Part shown: positions 2-20,092 of the stretch, in pieces
How the letters are laid out: every line of letters begins with the position of its first letter
Numbering within the stretch: the stretch's first letter is position 1
Assembly (NCBI GenBank): GCA_002763335.1
Contig: PEYS01000132.1
Location: 1-25,709 of the forward strand
DNA: 25,709 nucleotides
Direction: 5' to 3'
DNA from: Candidatus Woesearchaeota archaeon CG08_land_8_20_14_0_20_47_9
Lineage (GTDB): Archaea; Nanobdellota; Nanobdellia; Woesearchaeales; CG1-02-47-18
Notes under the pieces: model-generated
What the model was told of the DNA's origin: nothing
Database searches by the model: none
What the model saw: only the letters and a program-made list of their open reading frames with translations
Program-made: the position numbers and the translations under genes

Positions 2-220
2 AGGGTCATAGATATAATGTACAAGTTCGGGCTCTCAGGACTTGATATGATACGGCAGATACAGAGGGAGATCATAAACCTTGATATTGCTCCGAGGGGG
101 AAGATGCACCTGATAGACCGTTGCGGAGAGGCTGAGTTTAGAATGACTGAGGGTGCTGATGAGTTTATTCAGATCGAGGCGCTGTTGAGTCAGTTTGTGT
201 TGGCTGGCATAAAATCTTGA
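2..220 (+). CDS. rfcS: Replication factor C small subunit, C-terminal part (5' end outside window)
   Basis: Frame is open from base 2. GLSGLDMIRQIQREI...GEAEFRMTEGADEFIQIEALL matches the conserved RFC-S C-terminal helical domain. Confidence 0.9.
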   Translation, partial: RVIDIMYKFGLSGLDMIRQIQREIINLDIAPRGKMHLIDRCGEAEFRMTEGADEFIQIEALLSQFVLAGIKS

Positions 221-261
221 ATGCCGAGGCGAGCCGTAAGGCGAAGCCGAGTGCATTCAAG
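216..261. repeat. Palindromic hairpin element, family A copy 1
   Basis: Arms CTTGAATGC (216-224) and GCATTCAAG (253-261) around core CGAGGCGAGCCGTAAGGCGAAGCCGAGT. Overlaps the rfcS TGA. Related copies at 7256, 20035 and 25618. Confidence 0.9.
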
Positions 262-275
262 GCTCTCTTTATAAA

Positions 276-316: not shown

Positions 317-350
317 TTTGGATTCTGCTACTTCTGTATGGTGGTTCTAC

Positions 351-752
351 ATGACAAGCAGTAGCGACAGGACAGTGCCTATACAGTGCAGCCTCAGCAT
401 GATGGATGATCCTGAGAGGGAGCTGCGGAGGATTGTGCCTCCAGAGGCAGAGACTGTTGAGGATGTTCTATACAGGATGTTCGACCCCAGAGGGGATAAG
501 TACAACCCTCCGATGAGCGAGGGCAGTGTTAATCTGGTTAGGGAATTCTTATCATTACTGGAAGCAGCCCTCAATGGGGATCTGATCACCCTGCTTTACG
601 TAAATAAGGGGGAAGAATTAAGACTGGTGATGCCGAAAACAGGGCTTAGCTCCCTGCTTCCAAGTCCACTCTATGAATGTATTTATGGATGTATTAGCCC
701 AAAACTCTACAGCCTTGAACTAGAGCTGGTAGCAATACCAACGAGGGGGTAG
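351..752 (+). CDS. Putative ubiquitin-like (beta-grasp) protein ending ...LELVAIPTRG
   Basis: ATG 351 follows a GGTGG SD (ORF track start is TTG 318). Ubl-like order: strand VPIQCSL, strand ELRRIV, helix ETVEDVLYRMF (cf. ubiquitin DTIENVK), TLLYVNKGEEL, KTGLSSL, terminal strand SLELELV, then C-terminal RG. First gene upstream of E1- and JAB-like genes. Confidence 0.55.
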   Translation: MTSSSDRTVPIQCSLSMMDDPERELRRIVPPEAETVEDVLYRMFDPRGDKYNPPMSEGSVNLVREFLSLLEAALNGDLITLLYVNKGEELRLVMPKTGLSSLLPSPLYECIYGCISPKLYSLELELVAIPTRG

Positions 753-757
753 CAGAA

Positions 758-1744
758 TTGTCGTACCTGCTGTTTGGCATCCTGCAAGAATCAGGGATTG
801 GCCTGATCAACAACAATGGAGAGCTATACTGCCTCAGCAGGGCTAAGAGGGCATCAGAGGATTTAGTTATAAGGCTGAACAAGAGAAGCCACCCGCTTTG
901 CTATGTTGGCCCTGCAAAGCAGCTTCTGGTTGAGGGGCTTAATGAGTCTGGCGGGCCATTAAGCAGAATAGAGAACATGGAGAAGGGCTTCAAGATAGAA
1001 CAGGTCTGCAACATAATCGAGGCTGTATGCGAAACATACCTGAGAATGCTAAACCCTGACCTAGAGAAGGTGAATAAGAAAAAGGCAAAGGCAGCAAGAA
1101 GTCTGCTTAAAGACCTGCTGATCATTGGAAACAATGCCTACAAGATAAGGTATTATAACAACGTGAACAGGAATGAATTCACCCTTGACAATATTGTCAG
1201 GGAGAGCTGCCAATCTCTCAGCCAGCTTGAGGAGAGTTGCCATAAGACTCTAACATGCCCTGCCTGCTCATCAGTGCATCACCTGCAGCAATACAAATCA
1301 AGCCTCCAATTCCGGATTGCTGAATCCTATGCCATGATCTCTGTGATAATCCCATCAATGCAGTACATTGACATGGACCCAGATGATGGAAACTGCATCA
1401 AGAATGTTACTATCAGCGTAATACTTGATTTCTCTAAACATCTGAGCATTGCAAATGAGGAGCAGCCATACATCATACCAAGCCCCCTGCTAAACTTAAA
1501 CAAGGCATATGTTGAAGATCTGCCTAAGAATGCGTTCGGGCTCAGCTTTCTAACCACGCCAGCACACATACTGCTCAGCCCACCAGAGTATATCCGTAAC
1601 ATCAGCGATCCAATCGAGATGGCTGCTGAGCTTCTTCGTACAGCCCCTATTTTTCTCGACGCAGTATACCAGAAACATGACCTCAAGGGGATACAGAACC
1701 TATGCCATGATTCCAGAAGGCTTCTTGAGGGGGGGGCATCGTGA
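758..1744 (+). CDS. Hypothetical protein with a C/H cluster and a possible C-terminal E2/UBC-like domain lacking the catalytic Cys
   Basis: TTG start after GAGGGGG SD. CHKTLTCPACSSVHH motif. The C-terminal ~115 aa has a strands / P-x-I-x-x-SPLL / GLSFL / final helix layout similar to UBC HPN...ICL...helix. CDS is well supported; function is inferred from pattern and context. Confidence 0.45.
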   Translation: MSYLLFGILQESGIGLINNNGELYCLSRAKRASEDLVIRLNKRSHPLCYVGPAKQLLVEGLNESGGPLSRIENMEKGFKIEQVCNIIEAVCETYLRMLNPDLEKVNKKKAKAARSLLKDLLIIGNNAYKIRYYNNVNRNEFTLDNIVRESCQSLSQLEESCHKTLTCPACSSVHHLQQYKSSLQFRIAESYAMISVIIPSMQYIDMDPDDGNCIKNVTISVILDFSKHLSIANEEQPYIIPSPLLNLNKAYVEDLPKNAFGLSFLTTPAHILLSPPEYIRNISDPIEMAAELLRTAPIFLDAVYQKHDLKGIQNLCHDSRRLLEGGAS

Positions 1745-3093
1745 AGCCACTAAGAGCTGCTGTGCTTGGAGCAGATCTTATGACAGCCTACCTTATAAGC
1801 GCCATCTGCTTTAACAAGGGTGTTGAGGTTGCCATAATCTCAGAGAAGCCCTATGACAAGGGACACTTAGGCGAGGGTAACATAATCCTGCTCCCTGAAA
1901 GCAAGCAAGAGCTGCAGGTTTATGCCATAAGAGAGGGCATCAAAAAGCTAAACCCTGAATGCGAGGTAAATGCAGTCCCCATAAGACCATGTTACGCTGC
2001 TTCCCTAAACAGAATTCAACCAGACATAGTAATTGACCTCACAAGGGAACCAGAACAAAAGGAATTCGCAGAATGGTACTGTAAAAGAAATAAAAAGCCC
2101 CTTATATCGTCAATAGCAGGTCATGAGTCTGTACTTGTAATCTCAACTACTCCGAAAGGAGCAGACTCTATCTACAAGGACATAGGTTATGGGGACTCCT
2201 GGGCAGGGCTTGAAAAGACTGCAATGGCAGGGGCAGGGGCAGGGATCGCTGCTCTATACTTATCAGAGCCAGATTCAGATCAGTTGTTTTACTTCAGTCC
2301 AAACAAGCTCATCCAGGTTAATGGCTGCTTTGATATAAATGCTCTTGAAGAGATAAGGGACGAGAAGGTAAACAATGCAGTTGCTCAGTCGCCGCTAGAA
2401 AAAAGGCTATGTCTTGTTGGTGGCAGAGGCATGCTCTCAATGCATGTTGCGCTTGCAGCCCTGCTTGAGGGGGCAGCAGGGGTTGATATTTACGATAACG
2501 GGGCTGGGATGCCATCAGAACTCCAGGATAAGCCATTCTCCATTGAATTGCTCTATAAGCCACAAAAAAACAGCCATGCAGAGACTGTAAACATCATTGA
2601 GAAGAATGCAGCATACAAGAATGCTGCAAGTGGCGCTTACGCAGCAGTATTCGCAACTGGCTTTGAGCCAGGGGATGGCTTTGCGCTGAAATCACTAATT
2701 CTGAATGGCCCCCCAGTTATTGGTGGCCTTATAGGCCCGAGCTACAATGGCAAGATAATATCCATGCATAAAGGTCCGTGTTTGGTCTGCCAGCTTGCAC
2801 CAAACGCAAACCTTGATACACTACGCAAACAGGATGATGGCCTTAAAGAATTGGTATCAACCTACAGGAAGCTGCCTGAATACAGCGCAGCTTCAGGCCA
2901 GGAAGAGGATTGGCCTAGTTGCCTGAGAAGCTACCAGGTGACATCTATGATTATGGCGAGCCTGATGGTAAACAGGCTGAGAGGCTTATCAGGCAATGCC
3001 CAAACACAACAGCTTATTGTTAAACCAGGCTCTTCGAGAACACTGAGGTTCTTCCACTCAAAAGAATATGGGCGGGGGTGTGCCTGCAATTAG
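1741..3093 (+). CDS. E1-like enzyme with two tandem ThiF/MoeB domains, degenerate adenylation motifs
   Basis: Domain 1: RAAVLGA, IKKLNPECEV, PDIVIDLT, YCKRNKKPLIS. Domain 2: RLCLVGGRGMLS...VDIYD, GPCLVC, PSC (C394), terminal CAC. GTGA overlap with the previous stop. Confidence 0.8.
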   Translation: MKPLRAAVLGADLMTAYLISAICFNKGVEVAIISEKPYDKGHLGEGNIILLPESKQELQVYAIREGIKKLNPECEVNAVPIRPCYAASLNRIQPDIVIDLTREPEQKEFAEWYCKRNKKPLISSIAGHESVLVISTTPKGADSIYKDIGYGDSWAGLEKTAMAGAGAGIAALYLSEPDSDQLFYFSPNKLIQVNGCFDINALEEIRDEKVNNAVAQSPLEKRLCLVGGRGMLSMHVALAALLEGAAGVDIYDNGAGMPSELQDKPFSIELLYKPQKNSHAETVNIIEKNAAYKNAASGAYAAVFATGFEPGDGFALKSLILNGPPVIGGLIGPSYNGKIISMHKGPCLVCQLAPNANLDTLRKQDDGLKELVSTYRKLPEYSAASGQEEDWPSCLRSYQVTSMIMASLMVNRLRGLSGNAQTQQLIVKPGSSRTLRFFHSKEYGRGCACN

Positions 3094-4663
3094 ATCCGCA
3101 GCAGCTGGTTTTGGAGCGGTAATCGACAGCCTGTTCAGAAGGCGAGCTGGCCAGAGGGGCAGCTCCAGGGCAAAGAATAGCTCTCCCATCAGCCTCAATG
3201 TTAGATTGGCAGGCTACATAAAGACGAGGGTTGTATCATTTATAGTTAACAAGCTCTCAGAGGAGGTTTATGGTGAGCCAGCCCAATGCTTCGGCCTGAT
3301 CTGCATACCCAGAGAACAGATTGAAGAGAGGGAATTAAGCCGGGAATTAAGCCTGGAGCAAATGCTGATAACAGAGCTTGTTCCATCTACAACAACATTC
3401 AGTGGCCTGCCCTCATACAATAGGCATAACCTGGAGGGGGCAATAGAATACTCTCAAGATTCAGGGCTTGTTCCTGTTGGGCTGTGGCATACCGCTAACC
3501 TGGAAAAGAGCTGCTTTGAATGGGATACTGGCTTCTATAGCTGGGCGTTTAGGGACAGCAGAATGGCGAGACTAGGCACAGGAAACCTGTTTCTGCAGGG
3601 CCTGTCAATGCTCTTCAGCAATGCAAGCCTGCTCTGCGAGAGTAAATACAACAGGCAGGGAGACATATACTACAGCAGGGGCAGCGGTGTGGATGCGCAT
3701 GCCCCATTCAGGTTTAACTTTGTCATGGATGGCTTGCCGTTACTGGACTATTATTCTTTAATCCGAGCAATAGCGAATGGATTTGATTTTGGCAGCAGAA
3801 GGATTGGCAACCAGGTGGAGGGTGTAATAGATCGCATAGTAGAAGAGCTTAGAATAAACTTCGGAAACCTTGTAATCGAGTCCCAGAGCCAGGAGGATAG
3901 TTCTACCTACACGCCCTCTGATTCCGAGGTCGTTTACCATGATGAGCAGCAGACAACCCAGCCTGAGTGCGAGGATGCTGTAGTTGAACCAGTAACTGAG
4001 AAAGTAGCTGAAGAGGTGGTGGCTGAAGAGCAATATGGGACATCAGAAGCCAGATCTGCTGGCATGGAAGCAACAGCTCTTGACCTGTTCATCAACACCT
4101 ACGGGCTGGTGAATAAGCCCCTAACAGGGTTTATGAGGGCATATTACCAGGGCCTAGAGGCAGAAAATGCCTGTGAGCTCTATGAAGTTGCGAGAATAAT
4201 TGCAGGTGATTATGTTAAGGCAGATGGCAGAAGGGCCTGGCTCTGGGGTGATAGGGTCTCAGAGCTTGAAAGGATCTGTGGCTCAAGCAGATTCTCAGAT
4301 CATGCAGATCATGAGGAGCTGATCATGCTCCTTGACATGGCTGCTGCATCCAGCTATCTCAGGTATGCCCATAGGGAGGCTGCCAGCAGGCTGCAGTCAC
4401 TGGCTGACAGCTACCTTGCCATGCATGAAGATGATGGCCTTGGCATGGCTATGAAGATAATGGTTGAGATTGTTGACGGCAGGGATAAAGACTATTGGAA
4501 GTGGGAGAAGCGCGCAGACACGATATCAACTGTACTTGGCAACCTCACCATTGAAAAGCTGTCGTCCTATGACCGTATTATGCTAAGGCGGGCTGCTGTG
4601 CACGCATCATCTAAGGGGATGTACAACAAGCGGATTGGCCATTTATTCGGTGTAGAGGACTAA
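3068..4663 (+). CDS. JAB/MPN-domain protein (probably non-catalytic) with acidic linker and C-terminal two-copy helical repeat
   Basis: PAQCFGLI and LVPVGLWHTAN...EWD match the MPN ExxGxL and VGWxHSH...SxxD positions with substitutions. Acidic stretch aa ~271-325; repeated WxWxxR motifs. Confidence 0.65.
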   Translation: MGGGVPAIRSAAAGFGAVIDSLFRRRAGQRGSSRAKNSSPISLNVRLAGYIKTRVVSFIVNKLSEEVYGEPAQCFGLICIPREQIEERELSRELSLEQMLITELVPSTTTFSGLPSYNRHNLEGAIEYSQDSGLVPVGLWHTANLEKSCFEWDTGFYSWAFRDSRMARLGTGNLFLQGLSMLFSNASLLCESKYNRQGDIYYSRGSGVDAHAPFRFNFVMDGLPLLDYYSLIRAIANGFDFGSRRIGNQVEGVIDRIVEELRINFGNLVIESQSQEDSSTYTPSDSEVVYHDEQQTTQPECEDAVVEPVTEKVAEEVVAEEQYGTSEARSAGMEATALDLFINTYGLVNKPLTGFMRAYYQGLEAENACELYEVARIIAGDYVKADGRRAWLWGDRVSELERICGSSRFSDHADHEELIMLLDMAAASSYLRYAHREAASRLQSLADSYLAMHEDDGLGMAMKIMVEIVDGRDKDYWKWEKRADTISTVLGNLTIEKLSSYDRIMLRRAAVHASSKGMYNKRIGHLFGVED

Positions 4664-4665
4664 GA

Positions 4666-5568
4666 ATGTTTGCTCGAAAAGCCAAGATAAGCTATGAAGA
4701 CGAGGCTAGAAGCAGGTTCGACAGCATGCTTGACCCACGAGAGCATGTTGATCGCTTTTACGGGCCTGAAGTGAATCCATCCTATTGCTTGCCCCTTGAT
4801 ATTCTTGCGCCGAGGGTGCCTGTAGAAAAGGTTGTTGAGATCTGCTCCAGGAAAGACCCCTTAAACTGGGCAGCGTTTATTGATTACTTTGCATACCTTT
4901 CAGGCCTTATCAGGGGCCTTATCCAAGTCGAAGATAAAGAAACCAGCCAGGTAAGCCCTGAGCTTTGCATACTGGCATCTGATGAGAGGCTGGAAGAGAT
5001 GCTGAAAAAATACTGCAGCCTGACTCTCATTAATCTCTATAACTCACTTATTAAGATCGATAATGATTACAGTTTTCTATTCCAATTGAGTGAGACAGGA
5101 CAAGGATTTGCAGGGGGAGGGCAAACAGAAAGATTATCTTCCCACCAGTCTGAGACCGGTGGAAAGACTAATCTGGAAAAAATGCGAGGAGACCGAAGCT
5201 TTAGCGAGCAAACACGCCCTGTGACTGGGGGTGTCTCCGAGCATTTTGACACAAGCCAGGATATACCTATGCCAAGAGCATACACACCACCGGTCATATT
5301 CACAATAAGCGATACGCTTGGGATTCCTGTGCATACCTTGTATCAGCTTATCATGGTAATGGAGATTCCAGAAAACCTGACCTCACTCTTCTTCATAAAG
5401 CCCTATAACCCACTGCTGCTGGATCCTAAAAGCCTCTTGAGGATTGAGAAGAGGGATAAGCAATACAAGCAACTCATTGATCAGGGCTTCTCACGCTTTG
5501 ATATTCAAGCGTTAAATGCTGCACTGGCATACATGCCCAGGAAAAAGACTGCTGTAAAGAGGTTTTAG
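4666..5568 (+). CDS. Hypothetical protein, last gene of the Ubl-like operon
   Basis: 300-aa ORF starting 2 nt after the previous stop, GAGG SD. Two predicted ordered regions separated by a G/S/T/E-rich linker. No family recognised. Confidence 0.8.
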   Translation: MFARKAKISYEDEARSRFDSMLDPREHVDRFYGPEVNPSYCLPLDILAPRVPVEKVVEICSRKDPLNWAAFIDYFAYLSGLIRGLIQVEDKETSQVSPELCILASDERLEEMLKKYCSLTLINLYNSLIKIDNDYSFLFQLSETGQGFAGGGQTERLSSHQSETGGKTNLEKMRGDRSFSEQTRPVTGGVSEHFDTSQDIPMPRAYTPPVIFTISDTLGIPVHTLYQLIMVMEIPENLTSLFFIKPYNPLLLDPKSLLRIEKRDKQYKQLIDQGFSRFDIQALNAALAYMPRKKTAVKRF

Positions 5569-5864: not shown

Positions 5865-6074
5865 ATGGGGAGGATAAAGACTCAGCTGATAAAATCAACA
5901 GCCTTCAGGATTATGGAGGAACACGGGGATAAGATTACCAACGACTTTGGGAAGAACAAACTCCTGATTCAGGGGTTTGTTGACATACCCTCCAAGAAGA
6001 TCAGGAACATCACCGCGGGTTATGTGACAAGGCTGTTCATAATGGGTAAGAAGAAAGAAGGCGCTTGGGTATGA
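5865..6074 (+). CDS. rps17e: 30S ribosomal protein S17e
   Basis: MGRIKT...DFGKNK...SKKIRNITAGYVTR signature; strong SD. Confidence 0.95.
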   Translation: MGRIKTQLIKSTAFRIMEEHGDKITNDFGKNKLLIQGFVDIPSKKIRNITAGYVTRLFIMGKKKEGAWV

Positions 6075-7090
6075 TAGAGTTCGAGACCGAGGCAGAGGTC
6101 AGGAAGCTTAATATCCGCGAGGAGTTTGATATCCAGAAAATAGAATTAGCAATAGCCCAGAACATTGACAGGGCTGACATGGTGAACATATTCAGCCCTA
6201 CACAGGGGCTTGTTGAGCACTTCACAAGGCATGGCTACTTCTATAGGCCGAACAAGGTCACATACAAGATGGATGTCCCGTTCTCTGAATCCGAGTACAT
6301 TTCAAAACTAAAGAAGAACAAGAGAAAGACCATAAAGAAGGCTGTTAAGAGGTGCAGGGAGTGCGGGATCAGCATACTAAAGGAGCCGCAGCTAAGCGAG
6401 GTGTCATACCGCGGATGGCTTGATGTCTACACTGAAAACATAAACGGTAAGAAGAGGGGCATAATAAGAACAGGGCTTGAGCGCTATTACAGAAGCAAGG
6501 ACATGATGGCCGGGATATTTGCAGTGAAAGACAACCACATCATAGGAGGCATAATACTGAGGCGGAAACACCTCAGATCAGGGCTTAGGAAGATTTCATT
6601 CTCATTCGCCTCATCAAGGAAGGAATATTTCAAAAAGGGGGTGAACGAGCTCCTGAACCTAAAAGCAGTGCTCTTCGCAAGGGAGCTGGGCTACGACCAC
6701 CTCGAGAGGGGCATGGATTCAAACCTCTACGGGCATTACCTCTCACCAGGACTTTACCTCTTCAAAAAGTCATTCGGCTTCCGCATAACACCGAAAAATC
6801 GCTTTGGTGAGGTACTCACCACAATAACAAACTACGCGCCATTCCAGGATATCATCTTCTTTGTCAGCCACAACAAAGAGAAGCCGGAGGGAAACCTGAT
6901 ACTCAAAAACGATATTGACAGCACGAGGATTGCAGAGTTCGTATCAAAGTACCTCGAAAGGCTCAATGTTTATAAAGTTGAAGATAATACCATCAGAAAG
7001 GTTGATGAGATAATAATTCCGAGAGGTGTGATGATATGGCAAAGGGAGAAACCGCAATACCAAAAGCACCCGCTGCAAGAATACTCCTGA
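6071..7090 (+). CDS. FemAB/BioF2-like GNAT-superfamily acyl- or aminoacyl-transferase
   Basis: ATGA overlap with the rps17e stop. LKKNKRKTIKKA, GVNELLNLKAVLFARELGY and GLYLFKKSFG are typical of the C-terminal GNAT domain of FemAB-like proteins. Confidence 0.7.
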   Translation: MIEFETEAEVRKLNIREEFDIQKIELAIAQNIDRADMVNIFSPTQGLVEHFTRHGYFYRPNKVTYKMDVPFSESEYISKLKKNKRKTIKKAVKRCRECGISILKEPQLSEVSYRGWLDVYTENINGKKRGIIRTGLERYYRSKDMMAGIFAVKDNHIIGGIILRRKHLRSGLRKISFSFASSRKEYFKKGVNELLNLKAVLFARELGYDHLERGMDSNLYGHYLSPGLYLFKKSFGFRITPKNRFGEVLTTITNYAPFQDIIFFVSHNKEKPEGNLILKNDIDSTRIAEFVSKYLERLNVYKVEDNTIRKVDEIIIPRGVMIWQREKPQYQKHPLQEYS

Positions 7091-9754: not shown

Positions 9755-10120
9755 ATGATAAAGAATGCCTCAAAGGGCATAGTCATATCAGAGGCTGCCA
9801 GGCTCTGCACATCCAGGGCATCAAAGATTCGTGGCTTGATGTTCTCCCAGCCAAAAGACCTGGTCTTTGCTTTTAAAGAGGAACAGCCAATAAGCCTCCA
9901 CATGCTCTTCGTCTTCTTCCCAATTGACGTGGTGTTCCTTAACTCTGAGATGCGAGTAACAGGTTTGAGGAAGGGTGCTATGCCATTTGCCTCACTCATC
10001 AGGGGGCATGGCAAGTATGTCCTTGAGCTCAGGGCTGGAACAATAGCCAGAACAAAGGTAGGGGTGGGGGATGGGGTGGAGATCAGAGTCTCTGCAAATG
10101 CTTATCCTGAACATATCTGA
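9755..10120 (+). CDS. DUF192-family protein
   Basis: KIRGLMF, LHMLFVFFPIDVVFL, YVLELRAG. Start is uncertain (9734, 9743 or 9755). 3' end overlaps the thyA 3' end by 38 nt. Confidence 0.85.
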   Translation: MIKNASKGIVISEAARLCTSRASKIRGLMFSQPKDLVFAFKEEQPISLHMLFVFFPIDVVFLNSEMRVTGLRKGAMPFASLIRGHGKYVLELRAGTIARTKVGVGDGVEIRVSANAYPEHI

Positions 10121-11567
10121 AAAGCGAGGGATAGTTTAAGGCAATTTCTGCTTTTTCAAGCTCCTTCCCAAGGTAGATTGCATGGCCTATGCTTGAGACA
10201 AGCTGCTCTGCTGCAATCTTCATGTAGACATCTTCTGCGCTTGTTCCTGTATAAGTTCTAATGGTGTTATCATCCTGGCTTATATGCTCTGCACTAATCC
10301 TTCCATTGCTAATCTCAATAACAAAATTCCCCCTGGGATCAGGGCTTGTCACCTCTGATGAAATAAAACTGCCTCTCTGCTCATCTACAATCCTCCTCGC
10401 CTCTTCCCAGCAGTCCTCATATATATGTGCTGACTGCGAGATAATAACCAGGTCGCCGAGCTTAAGCCCATAATTACCCCTCTTCTCAACACCCCCCCTG
10501 ATTAGCTCCTGTAATTTTCTCAGAACAAATGCGTTCTCAGGCCAGCCGCTGAACATATCATTCGAGCGGATTAAAGCAGTCAGAATGAGTTTGTCACCAG
10601 AGATCTTGACCCCAATATAGTTCAGACATGGTGATAAGCCTGGCATTCCCCCTTTCTTGTTATCAATCCTAGGATCCCAAAGAACAGCCACAGCGCTCCT
10701 AATGCCCTTTTCTTCACTCAATTTTTTTATCATCGCCTCAACCTGGTCAACCCCAAAATGTGCCCTGAGTCTTTGGCCATAGGTGTACTTTATCTCAGCA
10801 AGAGGCTGGCTACTAAGCACTGTCGGGAAATATTCCTCAAGCATCTTCTCGTTGCAAGGCAGGAAATCAGGAACGCACATGCCTTCAGGGTCCTCATCAG
10901 TCACAACAGAAATCAGGTCAACTACCTCTTTCATTCTGCTATCGTAATGTGTCGGAGAAACCCTTCCAAACTTCATTATGATATCAAGGAGCTTCACCCA
11001 GACCTCAGCCACCTTTTTACCAGACACTCTAAACGCAGAGTCCTCCCCTTTTATTGTAGCAGCTTCCCTTGGCTTCTTTTCAAAGAACATGGGTTGGCTG
11101 TAGGGCGTGCCTTTCTTTGCTGAGAGTCTTTTTGCATACTCTAAGAGCTCGTCAAGGCTCTTTGCCCCAATCAGTGTGACGTTGTCTCTGAGAAGCTGAA
11201 GAGCTTGCTCGGTGACCTCGATGTCAATAAAACCATCCTTATCACTCCTGACCCTCCAGCACTCGTTCCCCACTGAATCTCTGCCCTTCTCAAACCCCTT
11301 CTTGAAGAAGTCCCGGAGAACAGCCCCACTTCCAGAGAGGTCATTGCCGTATACAATGAGGTAACGTATATGTGTGTTTGCCAGAAGGTTTCTTACAATG
11401 GGGTCTAGGCCGCGAGTTGAGGAATAGAGCTGACCAATAACGCCGTAATGCTCTGGTTTTAAGCTTGCAGCTACTAGATTCTTATCTGACCATAGAGTTA
11501 CAATCGCGAGAGGGCTTTCAGATACCCCAATCGTTAGCATGTTTCCCTTGAATACTGGCTTGAACAT
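10083..11567 (-). CDS. thyA: Thymidylate synthase with N-terminal MtrA-like and C-terminal DUF4346-like domains
   Basis: TS motifs YTYGQRL, RSAVAVLWDP, PCL, RSNDMFSGWPEN, SAHIYE. N-terminal GLDPIVRNLLANTHIRYLIVYG (MtrA-like). C-terminal DPRGNFVI and HAIYLGKELEKAE...YVQD. Confidence 0.85.
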   Translation of the reverse strand: MFKPVFKGNMLTIGVSESPLAIVTLWSDKNLVAASLKPEHYGVIGQLYSSTRGLDPIVRNLLANTHIRYLIVYGNDLSGSGAVLRDFFKKGFEKGRDSVGNECWRVRSDKDGFIDIEVTEQALQLLRDNVTLIGAKSLDELLEYAKRLSAKKGTPYSQPMFFEKKPREAATIKGEDSAFRVSGKKVAEVWVKLLDIIMKFGRVSPTHYDSRMKEVVDLISVVTDEDPEGMCVPDFLPCNEKMLEEYFPTVLSSQPLAEIKYTYGQRLRAHFGVDQVEAMIKKLSEEKGIRSAVAVLWDPRIDNKKGGMPGLSPCLNYIGVKISGDKLILTALIRSNDMFSGWPENAFVLRKLQELIRGGVEKRGNYGLKLGDLVIISQSAHIYEDCWEEARRIVDEQRGSFISSEVTSPDPRGNFVIEISNGRISAEHISQDDNTIRTYTGTSAEDVYMKIAAEQLVSSIGHAIYLGKELEKAEIALNYPSLFRYVQDKHLQRL

Positions 11568-12202: not shown

Positions 12203-12254
12203 TAGGATATCTGCCTAGGATATCTGCCTAGGATATCTGCCTAGGATATCTGCC
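12203..12254. repeat. Perfect tandem repeat, 4 x 13 bp TAGGATATCTGCC
   Basis: Four exact copies at 12203, 12216, 12229 and 12242 in the intergenic gap. Confidence 0.97.
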
Positions 12255-19923: not shown

Positions 19924-20092
19924 CTTAAAAGTTCTCGCCCTGAAGAGCGAGTTACCCACGAACTTTTAAGCATGATGGAATGCAAAAAGAGCGTTAATCA
20001 AGCATGCCTCCCAAAAGTAGCAGTTCCGACATAAGAAAACCTTGAATGCTGAGGCGAGCCGTAAGGCGAAGCCGAATGCATTCAAGGTTTTC
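19924..20092. repeat. Composite repeat block: nested hairpin plus conserved 5' module plus family A copy 3
   Basis: CTTAAAAGTTC/GAACTTTTAAG arms (19924-19970) enclose CTCGCCCTGAAGAGCGAG. AAAGTAGCAGTTCCGACATAAG module. 15-bp arms GAAAACCTTGAATGC/GCATTCAAGGTTTTC at 20035-20092. Modules recur at 25416-25657. Confidence 0.85.

Follow-up and report, generated by a model that had tools for sequence, protein, structure and literature searches.

Apparent loss of E1 and E2-like catalytic residues in a strongly diverged, Bil-like operon of a woesearchaeal archaeon

INTRODUCTION

Can the enzymes of a ubiquitin-type conjugation cascade lose their catalytic residues together and still be kept as intact proteins? 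The question is raised by an operon on contig PEYS01000132.1 of Candidatus Woesearchaeota archaeon CG08_land_8_20_14_0_20_47_9. The stretch analysed here (the window) is the entire 25.7-kb contig (25,709 nucleotides), part of a 1.2-Mb, 231-contig archaeal metagenome-assembled genome that is 92% complete and comes from groundwater metagenomes. Five tightly packed open reading frames (ORFs) occupy positions 318-5568 of its plus strand, and the operon proper (351-5568, 5.2 kb) encodes, in order, a small protein ending in Gly (ORF1), ORF2, a tandem-ThiF E1 homologue (ORF3), ORF4 and ORF5. An original prediction, made by reading the letters of the window, had proposed a coordinated loss of catalytic residues across an E2, an E1 and a JAB peptidase encoded by these genes.

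Given that residues conserved in 100% of 22 related E1s and 31 related E2-like proteins are replaced or missing in the window, the catalytic loss appears, by alignment, to be real in at least two of the three enzymes. The proposal of a coordinated loss thus holds for the E1 and the E2-like protein, while its JAB part is unproven. Our best explanation, held at about even confidence, is that a Bil-like conjugation operon has lost its canonical chemistry, has long been kept as a set of intact proteins that probably act non-covalently, and may now be drifting. Below, the evidence from the intact relatives is given before that for each protein, and the competing explanations are then weighed.

RESULTS AND DISCUSSION

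An intact operon family in related archaea

Pfam recognised nothing in the operon proteins of the window except a sub-threshold ThiF domain in ORF3 (PF00899, E = 1.4e-4; 21.6 bits, cut-off 28.1), and neither PADLOC nor PDB sequence searches with these proteins gave a match. By word-indexed search, ORF3 and ORF4 retrieved only themselves from 5.8 billion clustered proteins, and when ORF3 was compared exhaustively by HMMER with 1.84 billion representatives, two proteins came up at E about 1e-3 with 25-27% identity. The ESM Atlas model of ORF3 (predicted template-modelling score, pTM, 0.78) superposed on that of a 464-amino-acid (aa) archaeal tandem-ThiF cluster with a template-modelling score (TM) of 0.74 over 394 residues, and the language-model neighbours of ORF3 include BilD_N/ThiF clusters. 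Those of ORF4 are mostly JAB clusters, at a score of just 0.83 that makes them a lead only, and those of ORF2 are noise.

Six-frame searches with ORF3 were made in related genomes, and a profile of a neighbouring gene product, here called protein Y, was searched in 400 sampled genomes of the same Genome Taxonomy Database order. The weak ORF3 matches in related genomes fall inside proteins of ~440-500 aa that are canonical tandem ThiF E1s (Pfam ThiF 9e-56, match in the second domain), and the first ThiF half is an inactive adenylation domain (IAD) in all 22 of these E1s. PADLOC assigned them generic CBASS E1-E2 models only, via the active adenylation domain (AAD). The E1 genes lie in operons that also encode a 140-165-aa protein with a C-terminal GG that may carry a short tail, the ~430-aa protein Y, and either one or two Prok-JAB proteins. 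The genes stand in one of two orders, Ubl-Y-JAB-E1(-JAB2) and Ubl-Y-E1-JAB, where Ubl denotes the small ubiquitin-like protein; the window has the second order, which is common to five relatives. In the 27 JAB domains of the relatives, E, H-x-H and D are kept in every one (100%) and S in 96%. The family is accessory and patchy within the order (20% of genomes), the Y profile matching in 80 of the 400 sampled genomes, some of which hold several copies. Full-text literature searches found no description of this archaeal family, and one may exist elsewhere.

Protein Y has no Pfam or PDB sequence match. Its Cys is invariant in 31 of 31 members and stands ten residues past an H-P pair (HP-x8-C) whose H and P are present in at least 90%, and ten residues from H-P to Cys is what we take to be the canonical E2 spacing. 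An AlphaFold2 model of one member, built from the 31-sequence alignment, reached a mean predicted local distance difference test score (pLDDT) of 84.5. VIA-align matches of this model to the PDB are mostly helical bundles that fall on its N-terminal modules, and the sole notable matches of another kind are E2s, each over nearly the whole E2 chain: UbcH5b (Z 6.1, 127 residues), Ube2W (Z 4.9, 114/140) and UbcA1 (Z 4.6, 116/141). Foldseek of the full-length model against the PDB gave nothing significant. Because the model exceeds 400 residues, the E2 match is probably underestimated. With moderate confidence, the model suggests that Y is an E2-like protein with extra N-terminal modules. A profile search with the Y family over 5.8 billion proteins added just three sequences. 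An intact archaeal family with an unannotated E2-like protein, recognised by neither Pfam models nor PDB sequences, is a by-product of interest in its own right, and the frequent occurrence of apparently Bil-like Ubl/E2/E1/JAB operons in a small-genome archaeal order bears on the existence of complete ubiquitin-type cascades outside eukaryotes and bacteria.

As a separate observation, the relatives' operons (e.g. L027, L028, L029, L031, L067-L086) are often followed by a gene for a large protein (670-1170 aa) that has no annotation.

The adenylation site of the E1 homologue

ORF3 is a clear E1-family homologue in which the tandem ThiF architecture and the structural zinc site are present. A hidden Markov model (HMM) of the 22 family E1s scored it at 54.6 bits, with a domain match of 53.7 bits over residues 4-253 that ends exactly at the start of the family's D-x-V-E-x-x-N-L-N-R-Q. 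With separate domain HMMs, the IAD gave 48.2 bits, while the AAD gave 4.8 bits (residues 222-253) and about zero for residues 254-450. Raw identity to the family is about equal in the two halves (17% and 19%), and the asymmetry between them, as these alignments read, is one of lost conserved motif positions, not of overall rate.

Past residue 253, the residue equivalences come from a collinear MAFFT alignment that carries no HMM significance of its own and is anchored at GxG, D252, D312, P325, G345, CxxC, S393 and C447. Eleven AAD columns are 100% conserved in the 22 relatives, and ORF3 retains four of them (G228, G230, D252 and D312). The other seven are substituted: D by G254, N by E260, R by D263, Q by K264, K by Q275, Cys by S385 and N by S402. 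The change of R to D263 is a charge reversal, and K276 adjoins the lost Lys position at Q275. ORF3 is also without the N-terminal R-Y-x-R-Q segment, the source of the Arg finger in E1-type enzymes (MoeB, Uba1), and only 4 further codons are open upstream of its start. Erosion of the adenylation site (D-x-D, N-L-x-R-Q, Lys and Arg-finger segment) is therefore a firm reading of the alignment, once some details of the original prediction are corrected.

These corrections concern both ThiF domains and the Cys. All residues named earlier in ORF2, ORF3 and ORF4 are where they had been placed, and the differences lie in what they align with. The absence of NLxRQ had been noted for both ThiF domains of ORF3; it is a real loss in the second half, but the first half is inactive throughout the relatives as well. 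The string YAAVFATGF, said to stand in place of DxxD, is found at residues 300-308 and the upstream Asp is lost (A305), but the Mg-binding Asp is probably kept, since D312 falls on the family-invariant Asp of 'C-V-D'. The four zinc ligands were correctly read as retained, with C347/C350 on the family CxxC, C447 on the family C-terminal Cys and C449 next to it as CxC. By contrast, the Cys of the PSC string is not the retained E1 Cys: Cys394 falls on the Val of the family P-S-V, and the invariant-Cys column is occupied by Ser385, nine residues upstream, in a register that is uncertain by a residue or two. From the CxxC to this column there are ~35 residues in ORF3 versus 15-25 in the relatives.

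The E2-like homologue

ORF2 occupies the same operon position as the relatives' Y. Two Y-family HMMs scored it at 7.1 and 9.7 bits, scores that none of 2000 shuffled sequences reached with either HMM, and the controls ORF5 and ORF6 were unremarkable. With hhalign, ORF2 found no match to the initial 5-sequence Y alignment, and its residues 12-59 aligned with the second N-terminal module of Y (P = 0.007). The ~100 residues by which ORF2 falls short of Y would fit a protein with a single N-terminal module in place of two. MAFFT set its S242-P243 on the family H-P and left a gap at the invariant Cys, and no Cys occurs within residues 214-315, the E2-core region. A single-sequence AlphaFold2 prediction of ORF2 had a pLDDT of 32. 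The alignments support ORF2 as a diverged E2-like homologue that seems to be without the H-P...C site.

The description of ORF2 as a dead E2 is thus borne out by a weak family homology, by the shared operon position, and by the presence of SPLL (242-245) and GLSF (261-264) where HP...IC would be expected. The pairing of Ser263 with the catalytic Cys is not, as Ser263 follows S242 by 21 residues versus 10 in the family. The sharing of such substitutions by homologues, an alignment check that the original prediction had proposed, was not found for either enzyme: the E1 residues concerned are invariant in all 22 relatives, and the Cys of the E2-like proteins is present in 31/31. The window is the sole copy found in which the invariant E1 residues and the E2-like Cys are gone and the reading frames are open.

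ORF2 further carries a cluster of Cys and His in residues 151-175 (window 1208-1282; C151, C161-H162, C167-x2-C170 and H174-H175) that could bind metal. In the E2-like proteins of the relatives, a helical linker takes up the corresponding region.

The small ubiquitin-like protein

An HMM of 17 small proteins encoded upstream of the relatives' Y scored ORF1 at 10.5 bits, while none of 2000 shuffled sequences exceeded 3.0 bits. ORF1 carries the family motif D-P-x-x-D-x-x-N-P, and it ends in Gly144, which falls on the nearly invariant Gly of the family GG. Most relatives add a short tail, whereas ORF1 is tail-less after this Gly, like two relatives of the same gene order. It showed no detectable similarity to the ThiS/MoaD/SAMP families. 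We regard ORF1 as a putative member, weak but significant, of the relatives' Ubl family; as it ends at its Gly, a processing peptidase would not be needed.

ORF4 in the JAB position, and ORF5

The two parts of ORF4 differ in how they relate to the family. Residues about 365-460 match the post-E1 proteins of relatives (phmmer E = 6.7e-8), and jackhmmer found this C-terminal domain in six relatives, in five of them with an N-terminal JAB domain and in one behind a non-JAB, coiled-coil-like N-terminus. A weak internal second copy was seen within the C-domain region (4160-4663, residues ~365-531), and 12 of 1000 shuffles matched or beat it.

Residues 1-320 gave no Pfam, family JAB HMM or hhalign match. 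A global hhalign run of this region against the JAB alignment produced an alignment of 7 columns only. In a shuffle test, 34 of 120 shuffled sequences aligned as well as ORF4 did. The JAB-like strings on which the 'dead JAB' reading was built do occur (Q73-C-F-G-L, H141-T-A143 and F150-x-x-D153, with E70 three residues before Q73), and H141 and D153 fall on the JAB motifs in a small MAFFT alignment; on sequence grounds, given the shuffles and the missing HMM and hhalign matches, that reading does no better than chance. What points to JAB is the gene position, the shared C-domain and the language-model neighbours already mentioned. We cannot say from these comparisons whether the N-terminal region would be a dead JAB or a different domain. 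ORF5 has no Pfam or PADLOC match and none to the neighbours of the relatives' operons.

Homology of ORF1, ORF2, ORF3 and the ORF4 C-domain to genes that stand in the same order in the relatives upholds the proposed origin of the operon from a Ubl/E2/E1/JAB pathway. The earlier statement that the ORFs are full length is equally sound, because all frames are free of stops and frameshifts and the gene ends overlap or abut.

Genome backup and population variation

As an alternative, the original prediction had suggested that the pathway works in trans with an active paralogous operon elsewhere, and had proposed a search of the genome for a catalytically intact copy. Our search of the 92%-complete assembly found no such operon, and the Y profile had no match in it. 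Pfam ThiF detected one canonical single-domain E1 (242 aa, 220 bits) by a CBS/helix-turn-helix gene near ribosomal protein L11, and Prok-JAB detected one 192-aa protein near an alanyl-tRNA-synthetase-like gene. These stand-alone UbaA-type and JAMM-type enzymes could in principle act in trans.

The other contigs that hold the operon are all at least 99.9% identical to it, so that the ratio of non-synonymous to synonymous substitution rates (dN/dS) is not computable. Seven single-nucleotide polymorphisms (SNPs) were counted in the operon, about 1.3 per kb, of which six are non-synonymous and one synonymous, with four of the seven falling within ORF4 residues 203-325. The flanking genes (7.5 kb) have 3 coding SNPs, 1 non-synonymous and 2 synonymous. 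Groundwater metagenome runs from 2014, 2015 and 2017 contain the operon.

Weighing the explanations

Taken as a whole, the operon would descend from a Bil-like one made up of Ubl, E2-like protein, tandem IAD-AAD E1 and JAB, and would since have diverged very far and become catalytically eroded. The E1 would keep the pseudo-dimer scaffold, the glycine loop, two Asp and the structural zinc site, and would have lost the phosphate-binding N-L-x-R-Q, the Lys, the Arg-finger residues and the crossover-loop Cys, next to an E2-like protein with neither Cys nor His at the H-P...C site. The canonical chemistry, from adenylation through thioester transfer to isopeptidase cleavage, would then no longer be possible. 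The tail-less Ubl would fit such a loss, because with no tail to remove a processing peptidase is dispensable. Since ~80% of residues have changed and the 5.2 kb nonetheless contain no stop or frameshift, we infer that the proteins were under selection for another role during most of that time. Long retention as intact proteins in turn suggests that they probably act non-covalently, most likely as a complex in which the pseudo-E1 would hold the Ubl tail and the E2-like partner, and selection for that role may now be relaxed. The stronger form of this proposal, in which a complete module of Ubl, E2 fold, tandem E1 and MPN-position protein is used as a non-covalent assembly with every enzyme non-catalytic, is tentative and on balance doubtful.

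Several points weigh against these proposals. In structural terms, a JAB fold in ORF4 is conjectural and the E2 core of ORF2 putative. In ORF3, residue matches of the AAD past 253 may shift by at least one position, as this part of the alignment lacks its own HMM significance, and K276 and C394 lie close to the lost Lys and Cys positions. The SNP ratio (6:1 versus 1:2 in the flanks) hints at selection relaxed at present, on tiny numbers. A single lineage carries this version, nothing above 25-27% identity being found among the 1.84 billion representatives, so that constraint is not measurable. The runs that hold the sequence are DNA metagenomes only, with no RNA run among them. The absence of Cys, finally, is by itself no proof of a pseudo-enzyme, since the E1 and E2 of Bub pathways conjugate without Cys via Tyr/Ser oxyesters (10.1101/2024.11.21.623953), and a Bub adenylation-Arg mutant still conjugates at a reduced level (10.1101/2024.11.21.623953).

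The Bub precedent opens another explanation, namely a non-canonical conjugation in which a rebuilt ATP site of ORF3 adenylates the ORF1 Gly, which then passes through Bub-like intermediates on Ser385 or Cys394 and on ORF2 Ser263. Oxyester conjugation without a catalytic Cys and the partial activity of the adenylation-Arg mutant show that such losses need not end the reaction, and it would agree with the glycine loop, D252, D312 and zinc site kept in ORF3, with a Ser at the invariant-Cys column, with a Gly exactly at the C-terminus of ORF1 and with the intact state of all ORFs. However, N, R, Q and K are lost together, with the charge reversal at D263 and the Arg-finger segment missing, and no intermediate Ser/Tyr state occurs among the 22 E1s or 31 E2-like proteins. 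The distance of 21 residues from S242 to Ser263, against 10 from His to Cys in the family, and the lack of a BubE/DUF6527-type protease in the operon by Pfam further speak against it, and we consider this explanation unlikely. Simple decay, in which function was lost recently and stops have not yet been acquired, could account for the SNP contrast between operon and flanks and for the lack of close relatives that keep this version, and loss should be tolerated in a family as accessory as this one. Yet identity has fallen to 17-19% and similarity of ORF2, the ORF4 N-terminal region and ORF5 is nearly gone while 5.2 kb stayed free of stops and frameshifts, which is not neutral. Start/stop coupling between the genes is preserved, structural features were kept selectively (four Zn cysteines, the IAD and the Ubl terminal Gly), and the SNP counts are too small for significance; decay as the whole story is thus improbable.

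Archaeal UbaA activates several SAMPs without an E2, and ORF1 could likewise be conjugated in trans: the housekeeping UbaA/MoeB-type E1 would attach it and the stand-alone JAMM would take it off, with the E1-like and E2-like proteins of the operon serving only as specificity or adaptor factors. The genome does hold a canonical ThiF and a Prok-JAB protein outside any E2-containing operon, but no linkage or co-occurrence ties them to the operon, and ORF1 lacks detectable similarity to ThiS/MoaD/SAMP; this is by far the least probable of the explanations. For a catalytically eroded and formerly selected operon, two meanings follow from whether its proteins are still used. If they are, a whole conjugation cascade would here have been converted, in nature, into a set of binding proteins; if they are not, the window would be a snapshot of an accessory system being lost.

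Comparison with known systems

The bacterial BilABCD operon (Type I/II Bil) comprises the Ubl BilA, the E2 BilB, the JAB BilC and the IAD-AAD-CYS E1 BilD (10.1101/2023.09.26.559546). The archaeal family described here has the same four parts, an E1 with an inactive and an active adenylation domain, no E3, a Ubl with a conserved Gly and often a short tail that would be removable by a JAB peptidase, and a patchy accessory distribution. It differs in its archaeal host, in an E2-like protein that has ~430 aa, no Pfam match and one or two additional beta/helical modules at its N-terminus, in an E1 crossover that is short (15-25 residues; ~35 in ORF3) and has no ~80-aa helical CYS domain, and in a frequent second JAB protein that bears a W-x-W-x-x-R C-domain. 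The window copy differs again in being without the catalytic residues of the E1 AAD and of the E2. As to the anti-phage function that goes with Ubl conjugation in Bil, PADLOC matched none of the window proteins.

Likeness to the Bub (6E/DUF6527) systems lies in E1 and E2 relatives without a catalytic Cys and in a Ubl with a conserved terminal Gly. By contrast, Bub keeps a functional adenylation site and conserved Tyr/Ser-His residues, and it has the BubE serine protease and E2-E1 or Ubl-E2 fusions, whereas the genes of the window operon are separate and include none of these. Sampylation by SAMP, UbaA and HvJAMM is likewise an archaeal Ubl conjugation, with E1 and JAMM homologues elsewhere in the window genome, but it uses a single-domain E1, no E2 and a Ubl of the ThiS/MoaD family, to which ORF1 has no similarity.

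In eukaryotes, UEV domains, MPN- subunits (CSN6/eIF3f) and the inactive halves of E1 have kept their folds, lost the catalytic Cys, Zn ligands or ATP site, and serve as binders or scaffolds. These pseudo-enzymes act beside active partners in the same complex, whereas all candidate enzymes of the window operon appear eroded and no active partner operon was found. If the fully non-catalytic assembly considered above were true, prokaryotes would have their own equivalent of the UEV, MPN- and pseudo-E1 scaffolds, one that arose from an active Bil-like system, itself an archaeal family so far undescribed and with a new E2-like protein.

Organization and surroundings of the locus

Coordinates of the operon features are collected in Table 1. 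All operon ORFs are uninterrupted. In a slightly longer copy of the contig, rfcS (RFC small subunit) lies directly upstream of the operon; downstream of it follow rps17e (S17e), a 339-aa protein, a histone and a XerA-like recombinase. The neighbourhood is a housekeeping one with no obvious mobile island. An origin from such an island by way of a nearby integrase was considered and rejected, as the gene in question is the XerA-like recombinase amid housekeeping genes (rfcS, rps17e and histone).

Table 1. Positions of operon features in the window
Feature	Position	Strand	Description
ORF1	351-752 (ATG 351); longest frame from TTG 318	+	133 aa, Ubl-like small protein, C-terminus ...PTRG-stop
ORF2	758-1744	+	Putative shortened, Cys-less homologue of the relatives' E2-like protein Y
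ORF3	1741-3093	+	Tandem ThiF E1 homologue; 4-nt overlap with ORF2
ORF3 residues 4-253	1750-2499	+	Inactive adenylation domain and first beta-alpha-beta (G228-x-G230, D252) of the second ThiF domain
ORF3 residues 254-450	2500-3093	+	Apparently eroded adenylation domain
ORF4	3068-4663	+	Position of the relatives' post-E1 JAB gene
ORF4 residues 1-320	3068-4027	+	Orphan N-terminal region, where relatives carry the JAB domain
ORF4 residues about 365-460	4160-4447	+	C-terminal domain G-[KR]-R-x-W-x-W-x-x-R; weak second copy continues to the C-terminus
ORF5	4666-5568	+	300-aa orphan, translationally coupled to ORF4
Palindromic repeat, ~52 nt	211-262		On the rfcS stop, just upstream of the operon

The palindromic repeat has the arms CTTGAATGC and GCATTCAAG. 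A second window copy lies at 20036-20087, and more than 40 further copies with 80-95% identity are scattered over other contigs of the genome. After the repeat, at about 268-276 and ~75 nt 5' of the ATG at 351, the sequence reads TTTATAAA; this TTTATAAA box is TATA-like and may serve as the operon promoter.

Three further observations concern the rest of the window. The 339/341-aa protein between rps17e and the histone gene (6065-7090) overlaps both gene calls and belongs to no Pfam family. At 10083-11567 on the minus strand, a 494-aa fusion combines MtrA-like, thymidylate-synthase and pterin-binding DUF4346 domains; next on that strand come genes for dCMP deaminase and dCTP deaminase, and together with the fusion these would form a compact dTMP-synthesis cluster. 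Between these two deaminase genes, two near-identical contigs show a 13-nt intergenic deletion polymorphism at 12203-12215.

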